Source of the DNA: a virus
Taxonomy: Duplodnaviria > Caudoviricetes
Length of the DNA stretch: 29,254 nucleotides
Strand: one strand, 5' to 3'
Virus record (IMG/VR): IMGVR_UViG_3300032225_001255
Span: 1-29,254 of that record
The notes under the pieces are model-generated. The model did not search any database. It was not told the DNA's origin and saw only the letters and a list, made by a program, of their open reading frames with translations. A program made the position numbers and the translations under genes. Shown here piece by piece: positions 8,624 through 29,254 of the stretch. Positions within the stretch are counted from its first letter, which is position 1. Each line of letters begins with the position of its first letter.

Positions 8624-8748
8624 GTTGTTTATTTGGTTTTGATTTATATAATTTTCAAATTTGTTTGCGAGCTTTGTTTCTTCATTCTGCCAGAACCATT
8701 CGTTCTGCGACATTTGCTCCTCTTCGCTTATTCGCTTGTAATAACCCA

Positions 8749-9039: not shown

Positions 9040-9186
9040 AGTTTTGATTTTTAGTGGTTACAAATGTATTCAATTAGTTGGTCGTTCCAACGTACTTCTG
9101 AAAGTTTTTGACATTTCTCAATGTTCTCTGCTATCTCGTTGTGCGTTAAGTTGTATGCGTTAGCTGAAGAATAAACACAAACAAAA

Positions 9187-9417
9187 TTAGATTTCTTTGT
9201 TTGGCTCTGGTAGTTCCTTCCAATGCGACGTATTAAGTTTGAGGAATACTCGCTCAAGTTCTGCAATTCGTTGGTCGCACAATTGATCCCGAGACAATGT
9301 CCCGTTCTTTTGATTACCGTAGTAATTTTGTGCGGTAATGATTCCGTCAATAAGAATGTGTACTTCTTCTTCAAAGAGAAAAATTGATTTGTAAAAATTG
9401 GCTCTTTCATTGTTCAT
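9187..9417 (-). CDS. Hypothetical early protein
   Basis: 76 aa ORF with AACAACCAAATCAA leader. Confidence 0.6.
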   Translation of the reverse strand: MNNERANFYKSIFLFEEEVHILIDGIITAQNYYGNQKNGTLSRDQLCDQRIAELERVFLKLNTSHWKELPEPNKEI

Positions 9418-9431
9418 TTGATTTGGTTGTT

Positions 9432-9602
9432 TTAGATTTCTTTTGATTCAATTATTTCTTCGCGTGGTATAGCTGACTTGATTCGGTCATATGCAGATTT
9501 TGCATCTTCGTAGCTTGTATAAGACATATGAAACTCACCATTGACTACAATCTTGTAATACATATCGGTCAGCGTTGTTTTTTGGATTAGTTCTACTTTC
9601 AT
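9432..9602 (-). CDS. Hypothetical early protein (56 aa, not in ORF track)
   Basis: Manual translation MKVELIQKTTLTDMYYKIVVNGEFHMSYTSYEDAKSAYDRIKSAIPREEIIESKEI; ATGA overlap. Confidence 0.65.
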   Translation of the reverse strand: MKVELIQKTTLTDMYYKIVVNGEFHMSYTSYEDAKSAYDRIKSAIPREEIIESKEI

Positions 9603-9818: not shown

Positions 9819-10223
9819 ATGAACGTTACCACATACAAAAAAACTTACAAAAAAAGTAATGCAAAGCGTAAACCAACGCCCGAATCTGAATCAAACCAAC
9901 AAGAAATAGTAATTAAGTATCTAAAATTAGCATATCCCGACGTTCTTTATTGCGCTTCAGCAGGTGGAATGAGAACAAGTTACTTGCAAGCAGTCAAGAT
10001 GAAGCGCACAGGATATGTCAAAGGCTTTCCCGACCTATTCATATACGAACCACGTAGTACGTTTTACGGTCTTGCCATTGAGATGAAGAAAGAAAAGGGG
10101 GGTATTGCTTCACCAGAGCAGAAGCGTTGGCAAGAACAATTAAGAAACAGAGGCTATTGTTCTTATATTTGTAAAGGTAGCGAGGAAGCAATCAAAGTAA
10201 TCGACGAATATTTTAATGAGTGA
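9819..10223 (+). CDS. VRR-NUC domain nuclease (Holliday junction resolvase-like)
   Basis: ESNQQ...GYVKGFPDL...AIEMK...SPEQKRWQEQL, PD-(D/E)xK pattern. Confidence 0.9.
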   Translation: MNVTTYKKTYKKSNAKRKPTPESESNQQEIVIKYLKLAYPDVLYCASAGGMRTSYLQAVKMKRTGYVKGFPDLFIYEPRSTFYGLAIEMKKEKGGIASPEQKRWQEQLRNRGYCSYICKGSEEAIKVIDEYFNE

Positions 10224-10723
10224 CACTTGACCAATACATAGAAGGACATTACAAAAAGTTCAAAGAACTTGCGAAGAACATTTCGCGAGGCGAGGATTAC
10301 TACGAAGACTTGCTTCACGATTCTTTGTTGTCTATGTTTGGTTCAAAACACATCGAAAACTTAATCGAAACAGGTGACTTTGAGTTTTATCTTATTCGTG
10401 TGATGTATCTTGCCGTCAATTCACCTACTTCGCCTTTCTACCGTCAAACAATCGCCTGGAACAGAAACCGTCGAGACTTTAAAGAATATGCGCACGAAGT
10501 CGATAAGACTTGGTTAGGTGCACGCATGACAAACGAGCAACTTGATATTCTAATTAGCCGGTTAACCGAGTTTGAACGTCTTATCTTTCAGGAGTACATC
10601 TTCGAAGGTTTCACCTATCGCGAGTTTTCTAAGCAGACAGGAATACCTACCATATTCCTTTACCGAACAATTGATTCAATTAAACAAAAAATAAGAGCAA
10701 ATGTTATTCGCAAAATCAAGTGA
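10220..10723 (+). CDS. ECF sigma-factor-like transcription regulator
   Basis: Region 2-like EDLLHDSLL and region 4-like LTEFERLIF...GFTYREFSKQTGIP. Confidence 0.8.
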   Translation: MTLDQYIEGHYKKFKELAKNISRGEDYYEDLLHDSLLSMFGSKHIENLIETGDFEFYLIRVMYLAVNSPTSPFYRQTIAWNRNRRDFKEYAHEVDKTWLGARMTNEQLDILISRLTEFERLIFQEYIFEGFTYREFSKQTGIPTIFLYRTIDSIKQKIRANVIRKIK

Positions 10724-11263: not shown

Positions 11264-11512
11264 GAAGTAAATGAAACAAACTGAATAAGAACACTAAGAT
11301 CCTTCGTAAGTCAAAGCGAAGTAACCAATGACTACACTTGCAATACATCAATGCTTGGATCGTGCAACTGCCCTTTTAAGGGCGAGAGTAATCTTTTTCG
11401 GGGGAGCTTTTTCTTTTGTTCTTTCTTTAAAGTGCTTACACGTTTTCTTTGTTCTTTTCTTTTCTTTGCATATTTAGTGACATACTATAAATTTAATGAC
11501 ATATAAAAACTT

Positions 11513-12099: not shown

Positions 12100-12143
12100 T
12101 TCTTATATTTATACTTTAGTAAACATCAAAAGTTTAGAAAAAG

Positions 12144-13473: not shown

Positions 13474-14055
13474 ATGAGCATAAAAGTAAGTATACCAGCT
13501 GACTATTCTTCGATAAGCGTCAAGCAATATGTTGACTATCAAGCAGCAAAGAACGATATTGAACGTTTACTGTCAATTAGTAACTTGACAAAAGAGAAAG
13601 CAGAACAGATTCCTTTCCAACACTTGCCAACATTAATAGAAGCATTTGAAGGAATATTGTTGAATGAAAGCGCAAAGTTCTTTGAGACGATAACTATTAA
13701 GGACAAGGACTTTGGTTTTATTCCTGACCTTTACTCTATCTCAATGGGTGAGTACGCAGACATAAGCACCTGGAGTGCAGATGTGTCAACAAATATGGTT
13801 AAGATAATGGGAACGCTTTACAGATCAATCGACAAACGTGTAGGTTCAAAATACACAATCGTCCCACATAGCAAGGCAAACCGCGAACTTGTTGAAGGTT
13901 ATGTCGAGCAGATGACACTCGAACAATTCAACGGTGCGATGCTTTTTTTTTCGACTTTGCTCAACGAACTAAGCAACACTTCGCTAGATTATTTGGAGAC
14001 AGAGGTGAAGAAGTTGGAGATGGAGTTGACGCAATTGACGACCGAGACAACCTAA
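13474..14055 (+). CDS. Tail assembly chaperone-like protein (short form)
   Basis: FGFIPDLYSISMGEYADI; T9 slippery run at MLFF; likely start ATG 13474. Confidence 0.7.
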   Translation: MSIKVSIPADYSSISVKQYVDYQAAKNDIERLLSISNLTKEKAEQIPFQHLPTLIEAFEGILLNESAKFFETITIKDKDFGFIPDLYSISMGEYADISTWSADVSTNMVKIMGTLYRSIDKRVGSKYTIVPHSKANRELVEGYVEQMTLEQFNGAMLFFSTLLNELSNTSLDYLETEVKKLEMELTQLTTETT

Positions 14056-14231
14056 ACCAAGTACTCGGACGATACGGTTGGTATCACTTATTTATGGAAG
14101 CGTGTGGACGCGACATAACTAAATTAGACGCAATTACGGAAAAATCCGCGTGGGAGATATTTACATATATGACTTACCTAATAGACTACAATTATGTCGA
14201 ACGTACAAAGCTACAACGCGCTCATCGATAG
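13950..14231 (+). CDS. -1 frameshift extension of the tail assembly chaperone (gpGT-like)
   Basis: The -1 frame is open from the T9 run: FDFAQRTKQHFARLFG...GRYGWYHLFMEACGRDITKLDAITEKSAWEIFTYMTY...; it fills the 14056-14193 gap. Confidence 0.75.
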   Translation, partial: FDFAQRTKQHFARLFGDRGEEVGDGVDAIDDRDNLNQVLGRYGWYHLFMEACGRDITKLDAITEKSAWEIFTYMTYLIDYNYVERTKLQRAHR

Positions 14232-16608
14232 ATTCAAAGCATTTGCTTCTGGACACTTTATTCTCAAGACTTTCTCACATGGACAGATAGATACAGCTGA
14301 CCTTGAGAAGTTTACTGAATATCCGTTCATGCACGTTGTGCCTTCTAACGTTTCTTATGCTAAAGGAACAAAGACATTCTCATTTCAGATTGTCCTTGCA
14401 GATCTTCCAAGAGATAAAGACGATAAGGTAGAATTTCAGCGTGAGGTTCTTTCCGACCTTCAACGCATAGCCGAAGATTTAATTGCTGAGATAACGAACC
14501 ACCGTGTGTTATTTGGTGACTTAATCACAGTACAAAACGTTTCGTTAGAACCATTCCTTGAAGAATTTCACAATACATTGACTGGTTGGACTGTTAGTCT
14601 TGAATTGCTCGTTCCTTACTATTGGGATGCGTGTTCTATTCCTGCTGAGTGGAATAATTACTTCGAAATAGGAACAGGTGGCGTAGGATCAATATTGTCA
14701 TTTAACGATTCAATCGTTCAAGACGGTAACGGAGTAGTAACTCTTGAGAATGATTTGTTAGCTCCACCTGCTAACTACTATTACGGAACAAATGGAGAGG
14801 GTGTTCGTGGTTGGTATCTATTGACGGATAATGTAGGTATAACTTGTGAAACAATTGGTTCATGTCAAACGATTATAGACATCGAAGCAGCGATTGACGC
14901 ACTCGAAGAAGAAATTGTTTTGAAGGCTGACATCACAAGCATCAGCGCGGTTGGTTTCTCGAATGATTACAACGACTTAGACAACCTTCCAACAATTCCA
15001 GCTGCTCAAGTCAATTCAGACTGGAACGCGACAAGCGGAGTGGCTGAGATTCTTAACAAGCCAACAATACCAACTTCACTACCTCCAAACGGAGCAGCAG
15101 GAGGGGATTTAACAGGCACTTATCCTAATCCAACAGTTCACAGAGTACATGGAGTAGATTTTCAAAGTGGTGCGCCTGCTGTAGATGACACATGGATTTA
15201 CGTTAGCACTCCCTTCGGCACACAGCCTTTTCAATGGCAGCACAGCAAACTAAAGACTTCGCAAGTTCAGAATGATAGCACCGTAACAGGAACGAATGCA
15301 GACGATGCGCTTGAGCATTTAGATAGCACTAAACAAGCGAATCTTGTTAGTGGAACGAATATAAAAACAGTTAATTCTAACTCATTACTTGGAGCAGGTA
15401 ACGTATCTGTTGGAACGGTTACAAGTGTTTCAGCATTGACGTTAGGCACAACAGGAACAGACTTAAGCAGCAGCGTCGCAACAGGAACAACAACACCTGT
15501 AATAACACTTAACGTACCTACTGCATCAACAGCTAATAGAGGTGCTTTGAGTGCTGCAGATTGGACTACGTTTAACGGCAAGCAGGCAGCGTTAGTAAGT
15601 GGAACAAATATTAAGACTATCAATAGCACTTCGCTTTTAGGTAGTGGAAACGTAGCTGTTGAGCCAACGATTACAGCAGGTACAACATCGCAATATTACA
15701 GAGGTGACAAGACTTTTCAAACACTCGATAAAACAGCTGTTGGACTAAGCAACGTAGATAACACAAGCGATGTAAACAAGCCTGTTTCAACAGCTACGCA
15801 AACAGCGTTAAACCTTAAAGAAAATTCAGCGAACAAACAGAACTCGTTAGCAACTGACGGTACAGGGGTAAAATTCCCAACTGTTGATGCTGTTAATAAC
15901 TTGTCATTTATTGATAAGGGTAAAGCAATGGTATCATTCTTTACTGATTTTTACGGCGCTGATGTTTCACGCGATGGTTTAGTTTCAGCTACTTCGGGCG
16001 GAATTATTGCAGCTCAGTCTTTAACAATAGCTCCAAATAGAACAAATCAGCAAGGCGTACATTCTTTAAGCACCGCTTTACTTGCAACCAATTGGGCTAA
16101 TCATGTTAGTTCCAGTATTACAAGTTTTTATTTAGGCAATGGGGCTTGGGTTTATGAAACTTCTATTAACTTAAATAATTTAAGTACAGCATTAGAACGA
16201 TTCAGAATTATTAGCGGTTTTGGTAATACAAGTGGATCAGCTGTTGAAACAGACGGTGTTTTTTTTACTTACGATGAAGGGGGCACAGCTAACGGAACTG
16301 CTGCCTCTCCAAACTGGCAATGCGTAACAGTTGCGAACTCTGTTCGTACTTTAACTACAACTTCGACAGCTGTAACTAACGCAGCATGGATTAAGTTAAG
16401 AATTGAGATTAATGCAGCAGCTACTTCAGCAGCTTTTTATGTGAATGGAACTTTGATTGCAACTCATACAACGAACATTCCTTTAGGTAGCGCATCTCGA
16501 TTTGTGCTTGTAAAACAAGGTATATTTAAAACAATAGGAATAACTAACCGAGTTATGTGGGTTGACTACTTAGGTTACGAAAACATTCAAACATCACCTC
16601 GCACATGA
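14194..16608 (+). CDS. Tail-terminator/neck-like domain fused to fibre-like repeats and a C-terminal beta-rich domain
   Basis: N-terminal ~150 aa EYPFMHV...EPFLEEFHNTLTGWTV; fibre motifs QVNSDWNATSG, GGDLTGTYPNPTV and VGLSNVDNTSDVNKPVSTA. Confidence 0.7.
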   Translation: MSNVQSYNALIDRFKAFASGHFILKTFSHGQIDTADLEKFTEYPFMHVVPSNVSYAKGTKTFSFQIVLADLPRDKDDKVEFQREVLSDLQRIAEDLIAEITNHRVLFGDLITVQNVSLEPFLEEFHNTLTGWTVSLELLVPYYWDACSIPAEWNNYFEIGTGGVGSILSFNDSIVQDGNGVVTLENDLLAPPANYYYGTNGEGVRGWYLLTDNVGITCETIGSCQTIIDIEAAIDALEEEIVLKADITSISAVGFSNDYNDLDNLPTIPAAQVNSDWNATSGVAEILNKPTIPTSLPPNGAAGGDLTGTYPNPTVHRVHGVDFQSGAPAVDDTWIYVSTPFGTQPFQWQHSKLKTSQVQNDSTVTGTNADDALEHLDSTKQANLVSGTNIKTVNSNSLLGAGNVSVGTVTSVSALTLGTTGTDLSSSVATGTTTPVITLNVPTASTANRGALSAADWTTFNGKQAALVSGTNIKTINSTSLLGSGNVAVEPTITAGTTSQYYRGDKTFQTLDKTAVGLSNVDNTSDVNKPVSTATQTALNLKENSANKQNSLATDGTGVKFPTVDAVNNLSFIDKGKAMVSFFTDFYGADVSRDGLVSATSGGIIAAQSLTIAPNRTNQQGVHSLSTALLATNWANHVSSSITSFYLGNGAWVYETSINLNNLSTALERFRIISGFGNTSGSAVETDGVFFTYDEGGTANGTAASPNWQCVTVANSVRTLTTTSTAVTNAAWIKLRIEINAAATSAAFYVNGTLIATHTTNIPLGSASRFVLVKQGIFKTIGITNRVMWVDYLGYENIQTSPRT
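15331..15654 (+). repeat. Internal fibre repeat KQAxLVSGTNIKTxNSxSLLGxGNV x2
   Basis: Copies at 15331-15405 and 15580-15654, diverged at synonymous sites. Confidence 0.85.
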
Positions 16609-16730
16609 TAATAACAAAATATAGAATGATTACCGAGAACGGTTATATCGAAACGCTCAGTGAGCAAGAAGCTATTGAGTGGGGTAATTATACAACAGTA
16701 ACAGAAGAAGTTCCAGACGACAATGGCTAA
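16605..16730 (+). CDS. Small protein after fibre (41 aa; possible fibre chaperone)
   Basis: Manual translation MIITKYRMITENGYIETLSEQEAIEWGNYTTVTEEVPDDNG; overlaps both neighbours. Confidence 0.6.
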   Translation: MIITKYRMITENGYIETLSEQEAIEWGNYTTVTEEVPDDNG

Positions 16731-17256
16731 CGAACAGAGCGCACCTAACTTCTTCGCTGTTGTGAATGACATGGCTAAACGCTTTGTCGAGTTGATGCAG
16801 TCTGACTATCGAATGAAACGAAAGGTAGGACGCAACTACACGAATGCAGTAGCAAGTGGAACGCTTGAAAAGTCATTAGCTTACAGATTAAAGATTAAAG
16901 GATCTTTAATCAATATTTCGATATATGCAAAGGGTAAAGCATCTGAATATTTTCTTGCACGTGAGAACGGAAGAAGACCAGGCAAGCAACCACCAGTAAG
17001 CGCAATTTTAGATTGGATGCGATTAAAGCCTATTAAGTTACGTGACAAAGAAAGTGGTAAGTTCAAGAAATCAACAGAAGCACTAAAAAAACAAGTTGCT
17101 TTTATGATTGCTCGTAAGATAGGACGTGACGGAATAAAGGGTTGGAAGGCATTTGACTACGCAATGGAAAACATTTGGGATGAATACGAAGCAAAAATAA
17201 TTGATGCTTACGGTAAAGATTTTGGAGCAAGTTTAGAAGGATTAAACGACATATAA
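16723..17256 (+). CDS. Tail completion/neck protein (HK97 gp10-like)
   Basis: ASGTLEKSL...ENGRRPGKQPPVSAILDW...FMIARKIGRDGIKG. Confidence 0.7.
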   Translation: MANEQSAPNFFAVVNDMAKRFVELMQSDYRMKRKVGRNYTNAVASGTLEKSLAYRLKIKGSLINISIYAKGKASEYFLARENGRRPGKQPPVSAILDWMRLKPIKLRDKESGKFKKSTEALKKQVAFMIARKIGRDGIKGWKAFDYAMENIWDEYEAKIIDAYGKDFGASLEGLNDI

Positions 17257-17267
17257 AAAATAAAATA

Positions 17268-18500
17268 ATGGCAATTACTATCAACGATCAACCGTCTCAA
17301 TATACGCCTATCGGACAACGACTTATGATTGTTTGCAGTTCAACAAACTTAGGTAACACAGGTTTTCGTTATGTGTTCGACTTTGGTTCTTTCCAAGTCA
17401 ATGTACAACCTAACGCAAGCGGAAAGGGAATGCTTGATCTTGCGCCAATATTCAGAGAATCATTGACACATGACCCTTTACTTTTGACAACAAATACAAC
17501 TGAAACTTCAAGTGTTGCTAATATTAGTTGTACAATTAAAGAAGGTTGGTTGGTTGACGGAGTATTTACTATTAGCGGAAGCGGAATGGCTGACATTGAT
17601 AATGTATTTGCTTTCCTTGCTGAATACCAAGTAAGCGATGGTTATAAACCAGATGTCAATATTCGTTATGCCTTAGATGGACTGTCAAAGTATTTAATGA
17701 GCGAACGAACAGTTAATACGCATAATTGGATTGAAGCATCTGCTCGTGGTTTGTCGAGTGACTATATTTATATTCCAACGCGATTAGCTGACTATGGAAT
17801 TATGTACACACCTTCAGCAACGGCATTGCTTCTAGATAACAATTTTGACATTGCAGTATTTTCAACATACGACAATAATAACGCTTTGATTGATACGGTA
17901 AAAGTTGAATTGAGTGACGCAAATAATCTTGTTAATGTCATTGGTGCTAATCCAATGAATTTGATTGCAGGTGGTTTAGATTTCACAAATGTTAAGTATT
18001 ACACGATACAAATTGGAAAAGAAATTATGTTCCCTATCTACACACCCGCTTCACGCGTTTATTGTTTTTATCTTGTTCCTGACGATTGTCGCTTTGACAA
18101 TGTTCGTTTGAGTTGGGCAAATACTTGTGGCGGTGTTGATTACTTCAATTTTACAAAGAAGTCGGAGTTATCGTACAACTACGATCGTAAGCAATACCAA
18201 AAAGTGGTAGGTTCATATAACGAATCAACGTTCGGTTTTAACACTTCAGACAGAGGTTCAACAGACCGATATGTGACTACAACAAAAGGACTACAAATAA
18301 ACAGCGACTGGATAAGCGTAGGCGAGTTTCAATTGCTTCAAACGCTTTGTCGTTCCAATGACGTATACATAATTAATGACGAGGGTACAATGACACCTGT
18401 TCTTATAGATACTCAGAACTTTGTTATCAAAGACGAACGCTATTCAAAAGTTTACAACGTTACTTTGAACCTTAAATACTCACAACCTGTAGGCTTATGA
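17268..18500 (+). CDS. Tail tip/baseplate protein (distal-tail-like)
   Basis: Beta-rich, with WANTCGGVDYFNF motif; position in the tail module. Confidence 0.6.
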   Translation: MAITINDQPSQYTPIGQRLMIVCSSTNLGNTGFRYVFDFGSFQVNVQPNASGKGMLDLAPIFRESLTHDPLLLTTNTTETSSVANISCTIKEGWLVDGVFTISGSGMADIDNVFAFLAEYQVSDGYKPDVNIRYALDGLSKYLMSERTVNTHNWIEASARGLSSDYIYIPTRLADYGIMYTPSATALLLDNNFDIAVFSTYDNNNALIDTVKVELSDANNLVNVIGANPMNLIAGGLDFTNVKYYTIQIGKEIMFPIYTPASRVYCFYLVPDDCRFDNVRLSWANTCGGVDYFNFTKKSELSYNYDRKQYQKVVGSYNESTFGFNTSDRGSTDRYVTTTKGLQINSDWISVGEFQLLQTLCRSNDVYIINDEGTMTPVLIDTQNFVIKDERYSKVYNVTLNLKYSQPVGL

Positions 18501-21151
18501 TAAACGAAGTAATACTAACGCTAACCGATAATAACGGCAATGCGTCAACAATTGACCTTTATGAGAATGAAAAGGTACATCTCAACTACAAATTCACAGA
18601 CCTAACGAACTTCAGTTCAATAGGCAACTACTCTCAGGAATTTCGCATTCCTGCAAGTAAGAATAACGTAGACTTCTTCGGTGCTATCTTTAATGTAAAC
18701 TTCAATGGTTGGTTTGACTTTCGTAAGAAAGTTGATGCCTCGCTAACAGTTAACACAATACCCATTGCAACGGGACATATACAAGTGAAAAAGTTGTACT
18801 GGCAGACGGGTAAACTATTCGAATTTGAAGTAGTTTTCTTTGGTGAAATACCAAATCTTTCACGTTTATTAAATGAGAAGAAGTTACGCGATATTGAGAG
18901 TATTGCAGCAGGTGACTTAGACTATGATTTTATTTATGCTAATGTTATAACCCCACCGAATGACCATACTATTTTAACATTATGCGATAAGTGGAATTTA
19001 ACAGAATCAAATCAGCAAGGACAGCCTATTTTTTGGGAATACAATTTAACTGATCCTGGAAATACAGCACAACCTTTAAGAGTTGGACATTTAACGCCAG
19101 CTGTACGTGCATATTATTTATTTGACCAAATACTTAAAGATGCAGGTATACAATGGACAAGTGATAATTTAAGTTCATGTCTTGAAAATGTTTATATACC
19201 ATTTATTAATGGTCAATATTTGAATAGTTCTGTTGGTCTTAATGATAATGCTTCAAAATTAGCTTTAGCAAATAATATATATGGATTAAGTTTTGGATTT
19301 TCTTCAAACTTATATAACTTATATAGTGATTTTACAGAGTATCAAGATACAGGAAATAATTGGAGTAGTGGTATTTTTACTGTACCTTTTAATGGTAATT
19401 ATACTTTTAACATTGCAATAAATGGTAGAGTTAATACATTAGATGGTTATGATTATCAAGGTTTATATTATACAAGAATTGTAGTATATGTAAATGATAT
19501 TTATACTTATTCTTATGAGTTAAATCAAGGGGGTTATATTTTTCACTTAAATACAAATCAAACATATTCTTTTAATACAGGAGATGAAGTAAAATTTTAC
19601 TTTCAATTAGTTCCACAACAAGGTAATTTACCTTTTTATGCTCCAATTTGGGATGTAGATTTATTTGGAAACACTCATATAGATTCATTTGGAACTGGGC
19701 TTGAATTATTAAGTATTGGTACTCCACTTGTAGGTGGAACTTGTGTAATGAAATTGAATGCTCCAGATATGAAGCAAATAGACTTTTTAACGTCTATACA
19801 AAAAATGTTTAATTTATCCTTCATTCCTGATAAAACACTACCAAATACGTTGCGTATTGAACCTATGAGTGAGTTTATTGGAAGTGGTAACACACTTGAT
19901 TGGAGTGATAAACTAGACTTGTCAAAAGATATAATGTATTACCCAACAACCGATTTACAAAAAGCAAATTTTACTTTTACTTATGCTGATGATAATGACT
20001 ATTTTAATTCTTTATATAAAGATAATGGTCATTTATATGGAACTTATAAAGTAACAGAAAACGACTTTGAAATAATTAATGAGTTTGCAACAGGTGAAGA
20101 AAAGGTTGAATTAACTTTTGCTCCAACACCTTGTTCAAATGTTGAAACATCAAATGTTATTGTCCCTAAATTTGTAAATAGCGAAGGTAATTTTGTTCAA
20201 CCTAAACCGCGTATTCTTTATTATGCTGCTGATTCTTTAGTACGATTATGGAATGAAGTTACAAACGGTCTTCAAAATACTTTAGTTCCTTGTTTAAATA
20301 ACTTCAGTTCAGTCAATGCAACAGTAAGCGATAAAGATTTAAACTTTGCTCCTGAGATAGCATTACATCCAATAATAGCACCGCCATATAACAACTTATA
20401 CAATCGTTGGTGGCGTAACTATTACCGTGAACTTTACGACGGACAAGCGCGTATAATGGAAGGAATGTTCGCACTAACATTAAACGACATATTTACTTTT
20501 CAATTTAGCGATAGGATATGGATTGTAGATTCATGGTGGCGCATTCTTGAAATTACGGGTTACGTTGTTGGTGAGCAAGAAATGACCAGCGTCAAACTTA
20601 TTCGTCTTCTTGATATAGATAATGGCTGCGACCTTAAACCTGTCTCAGCTAATCTTGACCAAACGTTAAATTGGGAAACTCCGAATGGAGATCCTGCAAC
20701 AGTAACTGAAGATTGCTGTCGTCGTTTTGGCTATAATTGGAATAGTGCGAAGAACAATTGTTTTTCACAACCCAACATAGGTACGCGTTCATTCATAACA
20801 GCACAAGCACCTACTTTAGCACCAACCGATTTCGGAGCGCCAGTACGTTTCAACGCTTCTGTTTCACAACCTATTAAGACACTCACTACAGATTATGTGG
20901 TAACTAATTTTGATAGAGTATTGATTGGAGATGAAAGCGCAGGTGATATAATCGTTTACTTGCCTTCTGCAACGACCATAATAGGTCGTGAAATAATCAT
21001 TCAGAATAAGACAGGAACGAACAAGATTATTATTACTCCTTATACCGGTGAAACAATCAACGGTAGTATTTCATTGTGGCTCACAACAGCAAGACAAACA
21101 GTAACATTAATTAGCGATGGAACAGACTTCACAACAACAACTGCAAAGTAA
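18497..21151 (+). CDS. Large tail tip/hub protein
   Basis: YSQEFRIPASKNN, DFLTSIQKMFNL, DWSDKLD; C-terminal fibre-like domain. Confidence 0.7.
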   Translation: MINEVILTLTDNNGNASTIDLYENEKVHLNYKFTDLTNFSSIGNYSQEFRIPASKNNVDFFGAIFNVNFNGWFDFRKKVDASLTVNTIPIATGHIQVKKLYWQTGKLFEFEVVFFGEIPNLSRLLNEKKLRDIESIAAGDLDYDFIYANVITPPNDHTILTLCDKWNLTESNQQGQPIFWEYNLTDPGNTAQPLRVGHLTPAVRAYYLFDQILKDAGIQWTSDNLSSCLENVYIPFINGQYLNSSVGLNDNASKLALANNIYGLSFGFSSNLYNLYSDFTEYQDTGNNWSSGIFTVPFNGNYTFNIAINGRVNTLDGYDYQGLYYTRIVVYVNDIYTYSYELNQGGYIFHLNTNQTYSFNTGDEVKFYFQLVPQQGNLPFYAPIWDVDLFGNTHIDSFGTGLELLSIGTPLVGGTCVMKLNAPDMKQIDFLTSIQKMFNLSFIPDKTLPNTLRIEPMSEFIGSGNTLDWSDKLDLSKDIMYYPTTDLQKANFTFTYADDNDYFNSLYKDNGHLYGTYKVTENDFEIINEFATGEEKVELTFAPTPCSNVETSNVIVPKFVNSEGNFVQPKPRILYYAADSLVRLWNEVTNGLQNTLVPCLNNFSSVNATVSDKDLNFAPEIALHPIIAPPYNNLYNRWWRNYYRELYDGQARIMEGMFALTLNDIFTFQFSDRIWIVDSWWRILEITGYVVGEQEMTSVKLIRLLDIDNGCDLKPVSANLDQTLNWETPNGDPATVTEDCCRRFGYNWNSAKNNCFSQPNIGTRSFITAQAPTLAPTDFGAPVRFNASVSQPIKTLTTDYVVTNFDRVLIGDESAGDIIVYLPSATTIIGREIIIQNKTGTNKIIITPYTGETINGSISLWLTTARQTVTLISDGTDFTTTTAK

Positions 21152-21335
21152 AGCAAACGCAATGGGGGCGTGTTTAGAGTTCATTAAGTTGAATATGAAA
21201 AGCAATAGCGAGTTTGGACGTATGGCAAATGGCAAGCGTAATCTAAAAATGTGGAAGCACTATGCATGGAAAGTAATTCGTATTTCGGTAAATGTAGCAT
21301 TTTGGATATTTATAATTTATAAACTACTCTCATAA
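21117..21335 (+). CDS. Small membrane protein preceding tape measure
   Basis: C-terminal hydrophobic helix; the start may be 21161. Confidence 0.55.
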   Translation: MEQTSQQQLQSKANAMGACLEFIKLNMKSNSEFGRMANGKRNLKMWKHYAWKVIRISVNVAFWIFIIYKLLS

Positions 21336-23443
21336 TGGCAAATTCAATAGATATACTTGTAAATACAAATGGTGTAACTGTTCTTAATCAAACAGCTGAA
21401 GCTGCTGACAATGCGGCTAAATCATTTGGGATAGCTAAAACAGAATTAAATAATTTACAAAAGCAGCTTCAAGATATGGCTGCTGCTGGTCAGCAAAATA
21501 CAGAAGAATTTAGAAAAGCAGCAGAAAGAGCAGGAGAACTTAAATCAAGTTTACAAGGTTTAACAGCTGAAATTAATGCAAATGCAGGAAGTGCTTTTGA
21601 AGGCATTTCAAATAATGTTTCTCTTTTTGGAGATCGTTTAATGTCATTAGATTTAAAAGGAGCAGGTCAAGCATTGACAGGAATGGGTAATGCTGTTTCT
21701 CGTATCAATATAAAATCTTTAAAAGACGAACTTGGCGGTCTTGTTAGCGGTTTAGGAAATCTTGCAGGCGCTATTATTTCAAATCCATTACTTGCACTTG
21801 GCGGTGCAGTTGTTGGTTTAATAATGAACTTTGATAAGATAAATAATATTTTAGCAGGAACAGCAGAAAAAGTAGAAAAATTAGGTCAAGCTAATCTTGA
21901 TTTAGAAACACAAAACAAACTTCTTGAAAATAAATTAAACATTGAAAAAATTAGTAATGCAAATTCTGCATATGCTATAAAACTTCAAAAAGAAATTGCT
22001 CAAAATAATATTAAAGCAGCCGAAAACGAATTAACCATTGCTAAAACAACTGGAGATATTAATTCAATACGAGAAAAAGAAAATTTACTTATTGAAAAAA
22101 GAAATTTTCTTAATACTATAACTGCACAACAAGAAAAAGACAGACAAGGTGCTGTTGATTATGCTCGCTCTATTTTATATAAAGGTTATAAAGAACAACT
22201 TGAAAATTCTAAACAACAACAATTAATAGAAACGCAACGAGTTGCAACAGCAGAATTAATAAAACAAAAACAAGAAGAACTTTTAGGTGTAAGAGCAAAA
22301 GAATCTATATTAATTCAAGATTCAAACAAAGAAGACGAAAAGAAAAAGAAAAATTTTGTTGAAATAAATAATGAAGCTAAAGTAAACTATATTGAAAGAG
22401 CTGCTGAAAGTGAAGCTGTAAAAGCAAAACAAGACGAAATAAACAAACTTATTGCTGAAGAATCCGATTTAAAAAAGGTTTCTAATATGCTTTGGAATGG
22501 AGAACTTTTAAAAGTTGAAGAAGTAAATACAGAAATAGCAAAAGGTGATGACGCAGCAGCAAAAAGATTAAAGGATCGTTTAGAATATGAAAAAGAAGCG
22601 CGCCAAAGTAGATTAGATGATATAGAAAGAATTGATGAAGAAATTTATCAAACAACTTTAAGTGAACAGGAGAAAGAAATTGACGCAGTTAGAAATAAGT
22701 ATTTTGAATTAATAACACTTGCTGATTTTTATGGTCGAGATTCAACATCTTTAAAAGAAACTCAAGCAAAAGCAGAAGCAGAAATAAATAAAAAATATGC
22801 CGATGCAGCTTTACAACTAAAACTTGATAACGATGAAAAATTAAAAGCTGCTGATGAAAAAGCAAAAGCAGAAGCCAAAAAAAGAGAAGAGGAAGCAACT
22901 CAATTTGAAATTCAAAGTCAAAATCAACTAGCAGAAGCAAAGTGGAATATAGCAAATGGTTCAATATCTTTATTAGGAACACTTTTTCAAAAAAATAAGA
23001 AGGCAGCAGATGTTGCTTTTGCTCTTGAAAAAGGTCTTGCTATTGCTAAAGTAGTAATAAGCAATAGAGCAGCAAATGCTGACATTTTTGCAAAACAATT
23101 AGCATTTTATTCTTCATCTGGACCATTAGCAATACCGTTAGCAGCAGCAAGTTCAGCACCAATGTTTGCAGCAAATAACATAAACGCAGCAGCTGCTATT
23201 GCAGCAATTGTAGCAAGTGGAGTAAGTAAATTTATGAACGGTGGAGGAGTAGGTGGTGGTGGCGGTGGAACTATGCCAAGCGGTGGTGGTGGAACACAAG
23301 CACCTTCACCTGCAAACTTCGCGTTCTTAGGAAACCAACCAAACCAACAACCACCGCTTCAGGCATACGTCGTAAGCAGTCAAGTGAGCAGCAACTTAGA
23401 AGCGCAACAATTAATTCAGAACCAATCAAAATTAGGAGGATAA
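21335..23443 (+). CDS. Tape measure protein
   Basis: 702 aa, Ala/Lys/Glu-rich coiled coil, hydrophobic patches, Gly-rich linker, C-terminal QAYVVSSQV. Confidence 0.85.
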   Translation: MANSIDILVNTNGVTVLNQTAEAADNAAKSFGIAKTELNNLQKQLQDMAAAGQQNTEEFRKAAERAGELKSSLQGLTAEINANAGSAFEGISNNVSLFGDRLMSLDLKGAGQALTGMGNAVSRINIKSLKDELGGLVSGLGNLAGAIISNPLLALGGAVVGLIMNFDKINNILAGTAEKVEKLGQANLDLETQNKLLENKLNIEKISNANSAYAIKLQKEIAQNNIKAAENELTIAKTTGDINSIREKENLLIEKRNFLNTITAQQEKDRQGAVDYARSILYKGYKEQLENSKQQQLIETQRVATAELIKQKQEELLGVRAKESILIQDSNKEDEKKKKNFVEINNEAKVNYIERAAESEAVKAKQDEINKLIAEESDLKKVSNMLWNGELLKVEEVNTEIAKGDDAAAKRLKDRLEYEKEARQSRLDDIERIDEEIYQTTLSEQEKEIDAVRNKYFELITLADFYGRDSTSLKETQAKAEAEINKKYADAALQLKLDNDEKLKAADEKAKAEAKKREEEATQFEIQSQNQLAEAKWNIANGSISLLGTLFQKNKKAADVAFALEKGLAIAKVVISNRAANADIFAKQLAFYSSSGPLAIPLAAASSAPMFAANNINAAAAIAAIVASGVSKFMNGGGVGGGGGGTMPSGGGGTQAPSPANFAFLGNQPNQQPPLQAYVVSSQVSSNLEAQQLIQNQSKLGG

Positions 23444-23446
23444 AAA

Positions 23447-24034
23447 ATGAAAAAAATTAAAGTTATTGAATATGGCATCGACGATGCTGGACTACTCGGA
23501 GTGTACGCAATTAGTGTTGTTGAACAACCCGCCATAGGGGTCGATTTCGTCGCCTTAAGCGAACAACACAATGTGAAGTTCAAAGAAGATTTTAGAGGTC
23601 TTTTATATGGTGCATTGTTAATTCCTGACCAACTGATTTATAGACGGGACGATGCAACAAATGAGGAGTATTATGTGAAGTATTCAAAGGACACCATTCG
23701 CGCTATTGCTTACAACTATATGAAGCAATCAAACCAAAACAACGCAACAGTTGAACACGCAAAAGTAGTTGACGGAGTTAGTCTTGTTGAAACGTGGATA
23801 ATCGAAGGTGAAAACGACAAGTCGAAGAACTTTGGCTTTGATCTTCCAGAAGGTACTTGGTTCGGCTGCATGAAGGTCGAGAACGAAGAAGTAAAGCAAC
23901 AGATTCAAAACAAAGAGGTATTGGGTTTCTCAATCGAAGGGAACTTTGTTATTGACAAAGAAATGTACATGAGTAAACATGAAGAATTTGCTGCACTTCT
24001 TGATGAAATAAACGAGCTTCTTAAAGACGAATAA
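23447..24034 (+). CDS. Prohead protease (XkdF-like serine protease)
   Basis: AISVVEQPAI, GALLIPD, EH, VETWI, LPEGTW and GFSIEG motifs. Confidence 0.85.
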   Translation: MKKIKVIEYGIDDAGLLGVYAISVVEQPAIGVDFVALSEQHNVKFKEDFRGLLYGALLIPDQLIYRRDDATNEEYYVKYSKDTIRAIAYNYMKQSNQNNATVEHAKVVDGVSLVETWIIEGENDKSKNFGFDLPEGTWFGCMKVENEEVKQQIQNKEVLGFSIEGNFVIDKEMYMSKHEEFAALLDEINELLKDE

Positions 24035-24037
24035 GTA

Positions 24038-24214
24038 ATGAATATTGAAGCAGGTGGTTTCTTAAAGTTGGAGTTGTTCAACGACGATGCTAACCTGTTT
24101 TTGAATGCACTTACCAAGATAACGAATGAAGGTGGTAAAATGGGATTCAAAAGTTACGGACTAAGCGAGGACGAAATGAAGACGCTCAACGCAATACTTG
24201 ATTCTTTAGGATAA
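24038..24214 (+). CDS. Hypothetical protein (58 aa, not in ORF track)
   Basis: Manual translation MNIEAGGFLKLELFNDDANLFLNALTKITNEGGKMGFKSYGLSEDEMKTLNAILDSLG. Confidence 0.65.
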   Translation: MNIEAGGFLKLELFNDDANLFLNALTKITNEGGKMGFKSYGLSEDEMKTLNAILDSLG

Positions 24215-24242
24215 AAAAAACGGGGGAAATCACGCCCCCGTT
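24213..24242 (-). terminator. Rho-independent terminator oriented on the minus strand
   Basis: AACGGGGG/CCCCCGTT stem; the A8 run at 24213-24220 gives a U-tract only for minus-strand transcription. Confidence 0.75.
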
Positions 24243-24283
24243 CAAACCTTAAAATCAAAATCAACCTATGAAAAGTCGAATTA
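24213..24283 (-). ncRNA. Candidate ~70 nt antisense small RNA
   Basis: Minus-strand TATATTTG (24289-24296) upstream, U/G-rich body CAUAGGUUGAUUUUGAUUUUAAGG, terminator downstream. Confidence 0.55.
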
Positions 24284-24339
24284 CGAAACAAATATACGTT
24301 CTTTTCTATTTAGGTACTAAACATTTAATAAACACTTAT

Positions 24340-24909
24340 ATGAATTTACGAGAAAAAGTAAACGCTCTTTTCGCAAAGCACAATGTAAGCCTATCAGCTG
24401 AAGAAGTTGTTGAGGTAAAACAGATGGTTGAAGCGATACTACAAGACGGAACAAGTATCTACTCAGACAGCGACGCTTGGGCAGTTGGTGTTCGTGCATT
24501 CGCTAAAGACATGGACGGCAATGAAGTCGCTCTTATGGATGGTGAATACACAACAGCAGAAGGTCTTGTTGTAACTGTTACAGGCGGTCTTGTTGAAGAA
24601 ATTGCTGCTGTTGCTGAAGAAGCACCAGAAGCGGAAGTTGCACCTGTTGAGGTTGTAGCTGAAGAACAAGCATCTGAATCACTAAGCGCAGAAGTTGAAG
24701 GACTTTTGTCATTGGTTGCTAAGTTGGAAAGTGAACTTGCTGACGCTAAAAAAGCGAACGCTAACCTTTCAAGCGAAGTAACAAAATTAAGCGCGCAGCC
24801 TGCCGCTACTTCAATCAAAGAAGTAAAGCAAGCAAAAAACAACGCATCTGCTAAACCTTACAACAAGATGAATGCAGAAGAACGTTTCTTCTTTCACTTA
24901 AACAAATAA
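24340..24909 (+). CDS. Capsid scaffolding-like protein
   Basis: Acidic and Ala/Glu-rich, DGEYTTAEG motif, coiled coil; lies between protease and capsid. An in-frame upstream ATG exists at 24268. Confidence 0.75.
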   Translation: MNLREKVNALFAKHNVSLSAEEVVEVKQMVEAILQDGTSIYSDSDAWAVGVRAFAKDMDGNEVALMDGEYTTAEGLVVTVTGGLVEEIAAVAEEAPEAEVAPVEVVAEEQASESLSAEVEGLLSLVAKLESELADAKKANANLSSEVTKLSAQPAATSIKEVKQAKNNASAKPYNKMNAEERFFFHLNK

Positions 24910-24926
24910 AAAAATAAAATAAAAAA

Positions 24927-25823
24927 ATGGCTACTACCACTTCATTAACTACAACCTTCGCAGGTCGTGAAGCAGCAGGATATATCCGCGCTGCATTTTT
25001 GAGTAACGAGTCTTTGGCTGCAGTTACCTTCAAAGAAAATATCGAATACAAACAAGTTGTTCGCAAATTAGTTGATTCTATCAGCTTCAAAAACGCTACT
25101 TGTGATTTTGATCCACAAGGAACAGTTACTTTAACAGAGCGTGTTCTTGTTCTTGAGAAATTCCAAATCCACAGACAATTGTGTAAGAAAGATTTCTTAG
25201 CAGATTGGGAAGCAAAATCAGAGCAAAACGGAAATCTTCACGCTTCATTAGCTGACGCAATGATTGCTAACATCTTAGCAGGAATGGCAGGTGAGAACGA
25301 GCGTTTGATTTGGCAGGGTGTTAACGCTAACGCAGGTGAGTACGATGGTTTCGAAACATTGCTTTCTGCTGACGGAAGTGTTAATGCAGTTCCAACTCCA
25401 GTTGCTATCACTGAAGCTAACGTAATTGCTAAAATTAAGTTGTTGGTTGCTCAAATGCCTATCCGCATCCGTCGTGCTGCTGAGAAGCCTGTTATCTTAC
25501 TTTCATCTGACGTTGCAGAACACTATCGTAATGCAGTTTTAGGACTTGGCGCAGGTTACTACTTGTATCAAGGAGAGGCTATCAAGATGACTTGGAACGG
25601 TCAGTACGACATTATCGAGTGTCCGGGTATGTCTTCTTCTACTATGGTAATGTGGCAGAAGTCTAATGCTTGGTTCGGTACTAACTTGATGGATCAATGG
25701 AATAACGTTGCTCTTTTGGATATGTATGCACATGACCTTTCTGATAACGTTCGTTTTGCTGCTTCTTTCTTCGCTGGTGTTCAGTACGGATTCGGAAACG
25801 AAATCGCTTACTACAACGCATAA
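24927..25823 (+). CDS. Major capsid protein
   Basis: 298 aa after the scaffold; CDFDPQGTVTLTER, ENERLIWQG, YDGF, GVQYG; followed by a terminator. Confidence 0.85.
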   Translation: MATTTSLTTTFAGREAAGYIRAAFLSNESLAAVTFKENIEYKQVVRKLVDSISFKNATCDFDPQGTVTLTERVLVLEKFQIHRQLCKKDFLADWEAKSEQNGNLHASLADAMIANILAGMAGENERLIWQGVNANAGEYDGFETLLSADGSVNAVPTPVAITEANVIAKIKLLVAQMPIRIRRAAEKPVILLSSDVAEHYRNAVLGLGAGYYLYQGEAIKMTWNGQYDIIECPGMSSSTMVMWQKSNAWFGTNLMDQWNNVALLDMYAHDLSDNVRFAASFFAGVQYGFGNEIAYYNA

Positions 25824-25849
25824 TCAGACCATTCTAACCCTTGCATAAT

Positions 25850-25881
25850 AGAGGTGGTGGCATAAAAACCACCCCTCTTTT
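25850..25881 (+). terminator. Terminator after capsid gene
   Basis: AGAGGTGGTGG...CCACCCCTCT stem followed by TTTT. Confidence 0.65.
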
Positions 25882-25904
25882 GTGCTAATAAAAAACATAA
25901 TAAT

Positions 25905-26420
25905 ATGGCAAATTGTGAATTAAGTATTGGATTCGACCTCGATTGTAAAGACGGGGTAGGCGGTATCAAACAAATTGTTTTGGCAGATTGGAATAATATT
26001 AATTTAAACACAATTACTCTAGATCAGGACGAAATTATTACAGCACTTCCACAAGGAACTGATTTGTACAATTACGCGTTACCAACACAAACAGGATCGT
26101 TTGAAGAAACAATAAATTTTAACCGCGACGCGGGTACTATTTTCTATACGCAAACGGTAAACATTATGTTGCAAAAATTAAGTGCTGCAAAGCGTCTTGA
26201 ATTGCAAAGTGTTGCTACTACTCGAGTTGTTGTTTTCGTTAACGATGCAAACGACAATTGGTGGGCTGTTGGTGTTGAAAATGGAGCAGACCTTTCTACT
26301 GCAACAGGAGCAACAGGTACTGTTTTTGGTGACGCACACGGTTATACTTTGGCGTTCGTTCAAGAAAGCGTTAAGCGTGCTTACAAATTATCTGCATCTC
26401 CGTCTATTTTAGTAGACTAA
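25905..26420 (+). CDS. Major tail (tube) protein
   Basis: C..S.G..LDCKDGVGGIK N-terminus; TGTVFGDAHGYTLAF. Confidence 0.7.
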   Translation: MANCELSIGFDLDCKDGVGGIKQIVLADWNNINLNTITLDQDEIITALPQGTDLYNYALPTQTGSFEETINFNRDAGTIFYTQTVNIMLQKLSAAKRLELQSVATTRVVVFVNDANDNWWAVGVENGADLSTATGATGTVFGDAHGYTLAFVQESVKRAYKLSASPSILVD

Positions 26421-26431
26421 TAAAAACTTTT

Positions 26432-26461
26432 ACACATAGAGGGGCAACGCGTCCCTCTGTG
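26432..26461 (+). terminator. Hairpin after tail tube gene
   Basis: CATAGAGGG...CCCTCTGTG stem (one G-U pair); no clear U-tract. Confidence 0.45.
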
Positions 26462-26493
26462 CTGTAATTTCAGCAAACAAATAAAAGGATAGA

Positions 26494-26877
26494 ATGGTTT
26501 ATTTGAATACAAACACAGCGAATCAATACGCATGGCTTTCACTAGATGAAGGACGTGCTTACTTCAACGTTGCATTCACATACTATCTTTTAATTTTAAC
26601 CTACGAAATGACAGGTGAAAAACTCGCTCAGGTCGTAGATGTAGTTATGGAAAGTCAACGAGTAACAAAGATTCGTTTGACAACAGTTGGTCTTGTCGAT
26701 GCTGGTAAATACAAGTACGAAGTGTACGGACAAAACAGCGCAGTTAATTTAGACCCAACAGATGCTTCCGTTGTTGGACTTATTGAACGAGGTTCAATGA
26801 TTCTCCAAGATGGAACAATTTACTTTGACGTTTCAACGCCTACGATTCCCGTAGACGTAATTTATACAGGGGCATAA
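26494..26877 (+). CDS. Virion structural protein (head-closure-like position)
   Basis: Beta-rich, GKYKYEVYGQNSAVNLDP; directly upstream of portal. Confidence 0.55.
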   Translation: MVYLNTNTANQYAWLSLDEGRAYFNVAFTYYLLILTYEMTGEKLAQVVDVVMESQRVTKIRLTTVGLVDAGKYKYEVYGQNSAVNLDPTDASVVGLIERGSMILQDGTIYFDVSTPTIPVDVIYTGA

Positions 26878-26878
26878 T

Positions 26879-28561
26879 ATGAGCAATATACAAGCAATAA
26901 ATCTTTCAGCATACGAACCAGTTGAAGCGGTTGAAAAAGAGAATCGTGCCGGTTGGATTGACTACGGTTTTAACAACTTATTTCCGCAACACCTCATAAC
27001 GCTTTACTACAACAGTCCTATTCATAACGCATTAACGAACTCAATTGCTTATATGATTGAGGGAAAGGGTACAGGAACTATTCTCGACAATGCGCTTCAA
27101 GGTATTGCGTTTGACTTAAAACTTCAAGGTTCGTTTTGTGCTGAAGTAATATGGTCAATGGACTTCACTCGCGTTGTAAAAATCAACCACTTGCCATTTG
27201 AGAACTGTCGTTTAGCTTACGACAAAGAAGAAGAAGATATTACAGGTATTTGGTATTCTCGTGACTGGGCTAATTATCGTAGCAAGAAAGGAAAGCCTGA
27301 GTTCATTCCTTCATTCAATCCTTCACAGGCACAAGAGCAACCAAGACAAGTTATATATGCTCACGGCATGATGGCAGGAAGTTCGTACTACGCGAAACCT
27401 GACTACTTCGGGGCGTTGAATTATGTTGAGTTGTCTTATCAAATGGGCATGTACCACGTCAATAATATATTGAATGGTCTATTCCCTTCATTCATTATTA
27501 ACTTTTTGAATGGCATTCCGCAGAAAGAAGAACGCGAAGCTATTCGTCGTGAGTGGGAAACAAGATTGAGCGGTGCGAGTAATGCGGGTAAGTTTTTGAT
27601 GACCTTCAATGAGGATCCTACACGCGCTCCACAAATCGAATCTTTTCCACTTAGTGACGCAGATAAGCAATATCAATTCTTAAGCGAAGAAACAGCGAAG
27701 CAAATTATGGTAGGACATCGCGTTGTTTCTCCATTAATTCACGGCATACGCGATACAACAGGATTTGGTTCGAACAAAGATGAAATGTTGGTAGGTTTGG
27801 AGATATTTAATAACTTAGTTATTAAGCCATACCAAAGAATCATTGAGAATGTCTTTACTCCAATTTTAGGAGAGATAAATATCGAAATGAACTCTCCATT
27901 CAATGAAGAAGTCGCAGTTGTTCAACCAACAGTCCAGACTACTGAGTTAAAAAAAAAAGTAGTTGCTGCTGAGAATGACTTTTCAGATGAGCAAGGTCGT
28001 GTTTGGATTAATGCACTAAAAGAAAAAGCTGAGTTAGTCGATTTGAATGAGTGGGAATTGTTAAGCGAAGAAGATGTAACAGAGCCTCATAACGAAGCTA
28101 ATTTCAGACAAGAATACATGAGTGTTCGCGATTATTCAAACGCTGACGAGAAGTCTCCATTTGGCGATACAGGACTTTATAAATTACGTTATGCTTACTC
28201 TCAAAATTTAACTGAAAATAGTCGTGAGTTTTGTCAAGAAATGGTAAGTCTTTCGCAAGCAGGTTTGTCTTTTCGTTATGAAGATATTCAAGACATGAGT
28301 GACGCAGGCATAAACGGAGAATTTGCACCTTCTGGAAGTTCAAGTTATAATATTTTTATTTGGAAAGGTGGCGCATTTTGTCACCACTTTTGGAAGCGTC
28401 AAATATATATTAGAAAGCGAGATTCAAAAGGTAAGATTTTACCTAATGATGGATTGAATAATGACAAACGTGTAGGTAATAATCCATACGTTCCACAAAA
28501 AGGTGCAGAAGGTGTTGCGCCAATTAATACACCAAGCAGAGGTTCACTTAAATACTCATAA
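26879..28561 (+). CDS. Portal protein with C-terminal MuF/minor-head-like domain
   Basis: YGFNNLFPQ, YYAKPDY, NGLFPS, SGASNAGK, HRVVSP; C-terminal SREFC...KGGAFCHHFW. Confidence 0.85.
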   Translation: MSNIQAINLSAYEPVEAVEKENRAGWIDYGFNNLFPQHLITLYYNSPIHNALTNSIAYMIEGKGTGTILDNALQGIAFDLKLQGSFCAEVIWSMDFTRVVKINHLPFENCRLAYDKEEEDITGIWYSRDWANYRSKKGKPEFIPSFNPSQAQEQPRQVIYAHGMMAGSSYYAKPDYFGALNYVELSYQMGMYHVNNILNGLFPSFIINFLNGIPQKEEREAIRREWETRLSGASNAGKFLMTFNEDPTRAPQIESFPLSDADKQYQFLSEETAKQIMVGHRVVSPLIHGIRDTTGFGSNKDEMLVGLEIFNNLVIKPYQRIIENVFTPILGEINIEMNSPFNEEVAVVQPTVQTTELKKKVVAAENDFSDEQGRVWINALKEKAELVDLNEWELLSEEDVTEPHNEANFRQEYMSVRDYSNADEKSPFGDTGLYKLRYAYSQNLTENSREFCQEMVSLSQAGLSFRYEDIQDMSDAGINGEFAPSGSSSYNIFIWKGGAFCHHFWKRQIYIRKRDSKGKILPNDGLNNDKRVGNNPYVPQKGAEGVAPINTPSRGSLKYS

Positions 28562-28564
28562 AAA

Positions 28565-29137
28565 ATGGCACTACAACCCGAAGTTCTACTCATTGATGAA
28601 AACTACATTAAGAAATATACGTGGATAAACGGAAGCGTTGACCCATTACTTCTTTATCCTGCTATCTATCTTTCACAAGATAAGTACGCACAGTTGTATT
28701 TAGGTACTGACCTTTATAATCGCATCAAAGAAGACGTGGTGAACGATGACATTGCAGGCGCATACGCGACCCTTCTTGACAATTACTTGCGTCGCATGAT
28801 AATGTGGTGGACGATGTACGAAGTCTTGCCTCATTTGTACGTTAAAACAGATAACGGAAGTCTTGTTATTCGTACAAGCGAAGATACTACACCTATCTCG
28901 CAAACAGACTTACAGAACTATCGCGATCAAGCGCGTTCACAAGCAATGTTTTATACACAGCGTATGGTTGATTATTTGTGTTTCAATCAATCGGAATTCC
29001 CTGAATACACATCAAATACTACTCAACAGATATGGTCACAGACAAATGTTTATCCATCAAACGCTTTTGAGATTTCAACAGGACGTGACCGTATGCCTTA
29101 TCAATATCGTAGACAAGGTTTAGGATGGCTTAGATAA
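28565..29137 (+). CDS. Head-tail connector/adaptor-like protein
   Basis: Helical; INGSVD...QD..LGTDLY...YLC..FPEY; follows portal. Confidence 0.6.
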   Translation: MALQPEVLLIDENYIKKYTWINGSVDPLLLYPAIYLSQDKYAQLYLGTDLYNRIKEDVVNDDIAGAYATLLDNYLRRMIMWWTMYEVLPHLYVKTDNGSLVIRTSEDTTPISQTDLQNYRDQARSQAMFYTQRMVDYLCFNQSEFPEYTSNTTQQIWSQTNVYPSNAFEISTGRDRMPYQYRRQGLGWLR

Positions 29138-29151
29138 TTAAAACAAAATAC

Positions 29152-29254
29152 ATGGCTACAAGGGGACGGAAAAAGGACATGGTTAAGCAGAAGATTTACG
29201 AAGAAAAGTTTCGTAAGTATCTCATCAGAAAAGAAAAACAAATAAAGAAGTTAA
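29152..29254 (+). CDS. Small basic protein (3' truncated)
   Basis: MATRGRKKDMVKQKIYEEKFRKYLIRKEKQIKKL runs off the window end. Confidence 0.5.
   Translation, partial: MATRGRKKDMVKQKIYEEKFRKYLIRKEKQIKKL

Follow-up and report, generated by a model that had tools for sequence, protein, structure and literature searches.

The window, that is, the whole 29,254-nucleotide stretch of DNA analysed here, represents a 29-kb virus record with an estimated completeness of 94%. Its leftward block (2396–9602, plus a short ORF before 9713) encodes terminase, MazG, thymidylate synthase, a DnaA-type helix-turn-helix protein and an NGO0469-family replication initiation protein, and is labelled "early" from gene content and promoters. 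The rightward block contains a sigma-like gene, tail genes, an XkdF-type protease and a portal. The large terminase gene (2810–4129, minus strand) ends the leftward early-type block, on the opposite strand to the head genes and distant from them, an arrangement that is common to the relatives. A probable capsid scaffold gene (24340–24909, plus strand), with a conserved start at ATG 24340, is located between the XkdF-type protease gene and a probable capsid gene; neither of these two genes could be assigned to a named family, and both were identified by position. Upstream of it, a 58-aa gene (24038–24214, plus strand) gave no family match and is strongly conserved, reaching 78–98% in most close relatives.

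A Bacteroidota host was inferred because of capsid matches to Nonlabens phages and TANNTTTG promoters, which point to this phylum. The sole cultured phages with a capsid match were Nonlabens phages P12024S and P12024L (28%). A search of species genomes for a host gave one unusable hit, a capsid match of 35% in a metagenome bin, on a contig of 4.5 kb. No integrase family was found among the 45 ORFs scanned of the 94% complete record, and all 53 records are linear or terminally repeated, with none classed as provirus.

Architecture of the minus-strand unit

The intergenic region upstream of the scaffold gene harbours a compact minus-strand unit, which consists of a −7 box, a 44-nt U/G-rich body, a GC hairpin and a U8 tail. 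The −7 element, TATATTTG (24289–24296, minus strand), is by sequence of the type read by the Bacteroidota primary sigma factor, and a −33 element, TTTA (24318–24321, minus strand; TTTG in many relatives), is placed 21 nt upstream of it. The predicted product is a 72-nt small RNA (24213–24284, minus strand), whose start, G24284, was positioned 4 nt after the −7 box following the spacing of 4–5 nt between this box and the transcript start reported for Flavobacterium (PMC6847099). The RNA would include an anti-AUG triplet, CAU (24268–24270), which on the plus strand is an ATG in frame with the scaffold gene; an invariant seed, UUUGAUUUU (24251–24259), in a region predicted to be unpaired; and an intrinsic terminator (24213–24243), with a GC stem at 24221–24240 and the U8 tail at 24213–24220. 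The stop codon of the 58-aa gene is overlapped by this predicted U tail.

The initial annotation had described a self-contained unit with this −7 element, an imperfect −33 element, a body of about 40 nt and a terminator working on the minus strand only. All these parts were recovered: the −7 and −33 elements at the positions given above, the body at 44 nt, and a hairpin with T tail (24243–24218) that is absent from the plus strand. Singly, the signals occur at chance level, with 42 matches to the TANNTTTG promoter pattern in the window vs 40.7 expected, and 12 terminators within 14000–29254 vs 8.9 in shuffles. The combination of promoter, U/G body and terminator was found once in the window and in none of 25 shuffles of the window and, as detailed below, is conserved. 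The initial observation is confirmed.

On the plus strand, back to back with the promoter of the RNA, we infer a possible late-promoter element, CTATT (24306–24310), which is replaced by CCGTT in distant relatives; the latter was tallied in 25 of 61 regions upstream of scaffold starts. The possible motif CTATT/TTATAT is also present at 12100–12112 and 11468–11478 (plus strand). It may be read by the phage sigma-like protein (10220–10723), whose family match is below the cut-off.

Conservation and distribution of the unit

Close relatives were compared over 80 loci plus the window, of which 70 have both flanking genes and 57 of these are distinct; a longer-cut set comprised 82 distinct regions, 73 of them in the window's clade. 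The −7 box is at the identical offset in 75/75 distinct close-relative regions, with variation confined to its two free positions (TA in 34, CA in 12, GA in 9, and GT and AT in one each of the 57 distinct sequences). TTTA or TTTG at spacing 21 was found in 53 of these 57, being absent from the four of a divergent clade, and the predicted RNA start is a purine in all 57. Within the window's clade, TTTGATTTT is present and the seed UUUGAUUUU invariant in 73/73 regions, and the terminator arms are fully complementary in 70/73, with four arm variants featuring swapped pairs and a T tail of 7–9. The consensus fold of 20 sequences comprises the terminator alone; part of its covariation is a register shift between 6- and 7-pair stems, so that the genuine terminator swaps are those in the arm-variant count. 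A metagenome scan recovered the unit in 26/26 usable loci (28 fetched), a set that likely overlaps the viral one. Since the sequences are kin and recombine, none of these counts corresponds to independent events.

The alignment with related phages thus supports promoter, seed and terminator alike. The seed initially envisaged, which contained the CAU, did not stand: only 63 of the 82 distinct regions keep this triplet, which was consequently rejected as the seed, the invariant one being UUUGAUUUU. A 5' hairpin displaying the CAU in the fold of the window was also discarded, as it is lost from the 20-sequence consensus. Judging from its sequence, we hold with high confidence that the locus is a real conserved unit, probably an RNA gene.

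More distant relatives were searched for promoter, U/G body and terminator outside genes in 29 near-complete genomes. A promoter-bearing unit was found in 27, being absent in G030 and G033; these 27 include units retrieved with hand-written patterns (G009, G022) or a relaxed promoter (G037, G038) and two doubtful ones (G034, G040). Units on the minus strand precede the protease gene in the G028–G035 group and G046 and follow another gene in G036, while those of G037–G039, G041, G042, G049 and P12024S are on the plus strand and face no opposite-strand ORF of >18 codons. The candidate unit of Nonlabens phage P12024S, near 10175–10245 of JQ823122.1, is directly before a gene and might be an attenuator. 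As for the site upstream of the scaffold gene, many relatives have a divergent promoter there that apparently serves real genes; others have, on the plus strand, a U/G tract with a terminator.

This site (24285–24340) is a swap point, at which the same divergent promoter leads into the RNA unit in the window and into various inserted leftward genes elsewhere (L149, L171, L179, L183, L191 and L198). In L107, the divergent promoter upstream of the scaffold gene (minus strand) precedes a stretch that is richer in G/C, contains short repeats and does not resemble the U/G body. In G037 (L254/L255), the orientation of the protease and tape-measure genes is opposite to that of the capsid genes. Promoter-less U/G tracts were also observed before a terminator after the protease gene (plus strand) in G028–G035, G044, G045 and G047, some of them repeating a short match to several early leaders. 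These tracts before plus-strand terminators were rejected as the same element for want of an own-genome advantage; late leaders of the home genome were matched more poorly than foreign ones (8-mers, 0.024 vs 0.052 and 0.080).

The initial annotation had also cautioned that ATG 24268 shares the reading frame of the scaffold ORF, which is correct, and that the unit might therefore be antisense in cis to an extended scaffold start. Under this alternative, the RNA or its transcription would mainly silence read-through into the scaffold–capsid operon, the read-through would be translated from the upstream in-frame start, and the likeness to early leaders would be a by-product of leader style. The scaffold frame is indeed open over −57 to −1 in 75/75 regions, with stops in the other frames in 65 and 74, and 73/75 have an upstream in-frame ATG, at −72 (46), −57 (at least 22) or −48; the 22 sequences with an ATG at −57 have no in-frame ATG at −72. 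The terminator scan found no plus-strand terminator at the site of the unit, so the RNA would find a perfect complement in any read-through message (full duplex, −60.5 kcal/mol), and the unit and the protease leader overlap in G028, G032 and G035. However, the extension is devoid of codon periodicity, with an entropy of 0.65/0.58/0.68 vs 0.26/0.14/0.81 in the scaffold, and column resampling of it expects only 0–9% stops. Its sequences represent few independent haplotypes scattered over the tree, and the upstream ATG is lost in some relatives. Accordingly, this caveat stood in weakened form: the open frame and the ATG are there, but conservation shows no codon-type pattern, and promoter and terminator are kept. 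With plus-strand units elsewhere lacking a sizeable opposite-strand ORF, we deem it unlikely that insulation in cis is the main function. A cis role beside a trans role is plausible, because read-through messages would encounter the fully complementary RNA.

Matches between the predicted RNA and early leaders

The complement of the seed, which was defined from the invariant alignment columns, is AAAATCAAA and is found four times in the window, namely in the unit and at 6260, 6819 and 9043; the three copies outside the unit each end 1–5 nt before a leftward early ATG. The first predicted target is the leader of a 96-aa early gene (ATG 9039), where the complement (9043–9051, minus strand) is just after the promoter at 9061–9068; of 17 clade genomes inspected, 16 have it. 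The second is a 251-aa early gene (ATG 6258), with the complement (6260–6268, minus strand) ending 1 nt before the ATG and kept in 17/17 clade genomes. The third is a 62-aa early gene (ATG 6813), with the complement (6819–6827, minus strand) 5 nt before the ATG; it was found in 3 genomes under the label of this gene. Searches provided no family names for the predicted target proteins. The five early-gene strings initially quoted as resembling the antisense of the body (9037, 6811, 6611, 6256 and 9415) are all present at these coordinates, but the full 9-nt complement occurs in three only (9037, 6811 and 6256). The complement tract covers A-rich positions, among them A-3, and such positions, A-3 included, are reported to tune translation initiation in Flavobacterium (PMC6847099).

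Across 16 clade genomes, the seed complement ranks first of 72 same-letter 9-mers, with 45 early-leader and 3 late-leader matches out of 68 in total, and 15 of the 16 genomes have two or more early-leader matches. Within the clade, it is found in 29/33 promoter-proximal early leaders, which mostly belong to two homologous genes and so are not independent, in 21/263 other early leaders and in 3/440 late ones; promoter-proximal early leaders of two distant groups gave 0/27. The 6260 copy follows a promoter-like box (6289–6296) and is inside an upstream ORF (6191–6613), which could explain its conservation. Yet its three codons show no synonymous variation in 17/17 genomes, vs 2/29 degenerate columns upstream that are likewise fixed, and they include the rarest Ile codon (95/605 in the window). 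The box and the leader of the downstream gene (5503–6258, minus strand) both lie within this ORF, where indels are multiples of three.

The 9-mer could also serve a phage regulator that binds DNA or RNA, as an operator or a translational-repressor site, of which the head-module copy would be a further instance or a decoy, with an incidental minus-strand transcript. Two of the three early copies are directly after promoters, and the distance of the 9043 motif to the promoter is steadier (8–9 nt) than to the AUG (3–7 nt). Against this, in every promoter-bearing unit listed the seed-like copy is antisense on the unit's own predicted transcript, the copy in the window is framed by conserved promoter and terminator, and the ORFs scanned include no repressor family, with small unassigned ORFs remaining. 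A regulator site is thus a very improbable explanation.

Covariation between bodies and leaders was assessed with one genome from each of 11 clades, picked by eye with regard to body type and capsid identity. Genes were obtained with a purpose-made ORF caller, and "early" genes were those on the strand that does not carry the capsid gene, a rule by which some genes of G039, G040 and P12024S are misfiled. In terms of shared k-mers, bodies preferred their own early leaders over foreign ones (p = 0.008, 0.0008 and 0.0006 for 7-, 8- and 9-mers, respectively; not significant for 6-mers, p = 0.21), while the preference was not significant for late leaders (p = 0.25, 0.44 and 0.65 for 6-, 7- and 8-mers). 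The 8-mer result for early leaders persisted when any one clade was dropped (p ≤ 0.0054), when representatives were redrawn (median p = 0.001) and when G034, G040 and P12024S were omitted (p = 0.0036), and leaders directly after a promoter gave p = 0.0005–0.002. Clear matches to own leaders were found in G009 and G022, G035 and G012 (14 nt each) and in P12024S (12 nt); G028, G036 and G040 had none above 9 nt. Nine of 11 sham queries gave nothing. A sham protease leader scored p = 0.02–0.03, but it overlaps the unit in 3/11 genomes, and an A/C-rich late leader free of such overlap reached p = 0.002, at 7-mers only. Covariation with early leaders, which the anti-leader reading had anticipated, was therefore detected across the 11 clades and was not seen with late leaders. 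The lack of a clade-specific match for late leaders and most shams also argues against the insulator explanation, and a cis role leaves both the plus-strand units and the early-specific covariation unaccounted for.

Pairing energies for the window alone were borderline or not significant against shuffled controls. The top-5 pairing energy was equalled by 4/100 shuffles, the ungapped helix by 18/60 and the 10-mers by 139/1000, and early and late leaders did not differ significantly in energy (p = 0.14). Perfect matches between body and leaders in the window attain 10 nt only, and its body comes only 4th to 9th among the 11 when scored on the early leaders of its own genome. Among the other 20 genomes, the energy of 14 was reached by ≤2/100 shuffles, and an ungapped-helix test allowing G-U pairs favoured the own genome in only 4/19.

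Some bodies, such as that of G036, pair with leaders of many foreign genomes, and several clades have no match at home. Both observations would fit a generic anti-leader whose main targets are mRNAs of the host, or an RNA that sequesters a host protein binding U-rich RNA, in the service of host takeover. The FopS family and GibS, small RNAs of Bacteroides thetaiotaomicron (PMC11697453, PMC7366714), are similarly built, repress translation starts and bind RbpB (PMC11697453). The own-genome, early-specific covariation speaks against such a host-directed role, which we regard as rather improbable.

Proposed mode of action and relation to known systems

Taken together, a stand-alone gene for the predicted 72-nt RNA, acting in trans as a repressor of the phage's own early leaders, is the reading that we favour with moderate confidence, because promoter, terminator and seed are conserved, the seed complement is found in early leaders, and body and leaders change together at the clade level. 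The trans-acting anti-leader initially proposed is hence supported by conservation, complement placement and clade covariation, but not by the CAU, kept in 63/82 regions, or by the weak energies of the window. The host's primary polymerase would transcribe the RNA from a promoter of the type that also drives the early genes, and its unpaired UUUGAUUUU seed would pair with the AAAAUCAAA tract directly before early start codons. Such pairing would cover the A-rich positions that Bacteroidota ribosomes use instead of a Shine-Dalgarno site and block initiation. A delay circuit may be envisaged, with early-gene translation going on until the RNA has built up, so that early expression becomes a pulse. 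Being antisense to the head operon, the RNA would further form a full duplex with any read-through late message, possibly as a second role. More speculatively, the possible late promoter back to back with that of the RNA might shut the latter off, and the RNA might contribute to superinfection exclusion or to a lifestyle switch.

Among known systems, the unit is built like FopS/GibS but is outside the FopS family. Likenesses include length (FopS, about 65–70 nt; unit, predicted 72 nt), a primary-sigma promoter (in the unit, by sequence, TANNTTTG), a single-stranded 5' part followed by an intrinsic terminator, which is the sole element of the unit's consensus structure, and repression through pairing close to start codons, in many cases that of a message's first gene, which in the unit is predicted. 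Unlike the multicopy FopS paralogues, one promoter-bearing copy was detected in this genome; its seed is internal and clade-specific, whereas FopS has a shared R1 seed sequence; and the predicted targets are the phage's own early genes rather than host glycan transporters. With the FopS model (RF04319), the best match in the window is this unit, but at 19.6 bits vs a cut-off of 56, so it is not a member, and 0/5 genomes exceeded the cut-off. One FopS-like copy has been reported in a phage (PMC11697453).

The C4 antisense RNA of phages P1 and P7, of about 77 nt, acts in trans near ribosome-binding sites, has variable specificity segments, is part of immunity, and comprises three stem-loops cut from a precursor by RNase P (PMC5320573). 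Like C4, the unit is predicted to encode a phage RNA acting in trans on phage messages; unlike the C4 described there, its conserved structure is the terminator only and it has its own promoter. Rfam searches of the window and seven related loci yielded nothing at the family cut-offs and no C4 match, leaving only a weak score of 25.5 bits for L20_leader vs a cut-off of 58.7. Lambda OOP and P22 sar are short promoter-to-terminator cis-antisense units that act on the overlapping phage message. The present unit is likewise short, runs from promoter to terminator and is antisense to a phage message, but its conserved seed matches distant leaders, and its place and strand change between clades. No description of such a unit in Bacteroidota phages was found among the Creative Commons papers and preprints listed. 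A 2025 review of phage small RNAs, which tabulates 38 of them, does not describe one in the part covered (PMC12197685).

A bolder proposal, which we put forward only tentatively and consider possible rather than probable, is early control by RNA only, in which one clade-tuned anti-leader RNA would be both a timer and a silencer of incoming phages of the same clade. Equally tentatively, seed and leader tag would then define immunity groups without a protein repressor. Such control would exploit the absence of Shine-Dalgarno sites in Bacteroidota. The transcript is testable, because a candidate unit is present in a cultured relative, Nonlabens phage P12024S, and an exact seed and exact targets are available for a reporter test. 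If true, abundant and almost uncultured Bacteroidota phages would time their early genes by a small RNA that co-evolves with a leader tag, and the GibS/FopS-style block of Shine-Dalgarno-free starts would extend to phage self-regulation, which suggests a compact programmable translational repressor for Bacteroidota.
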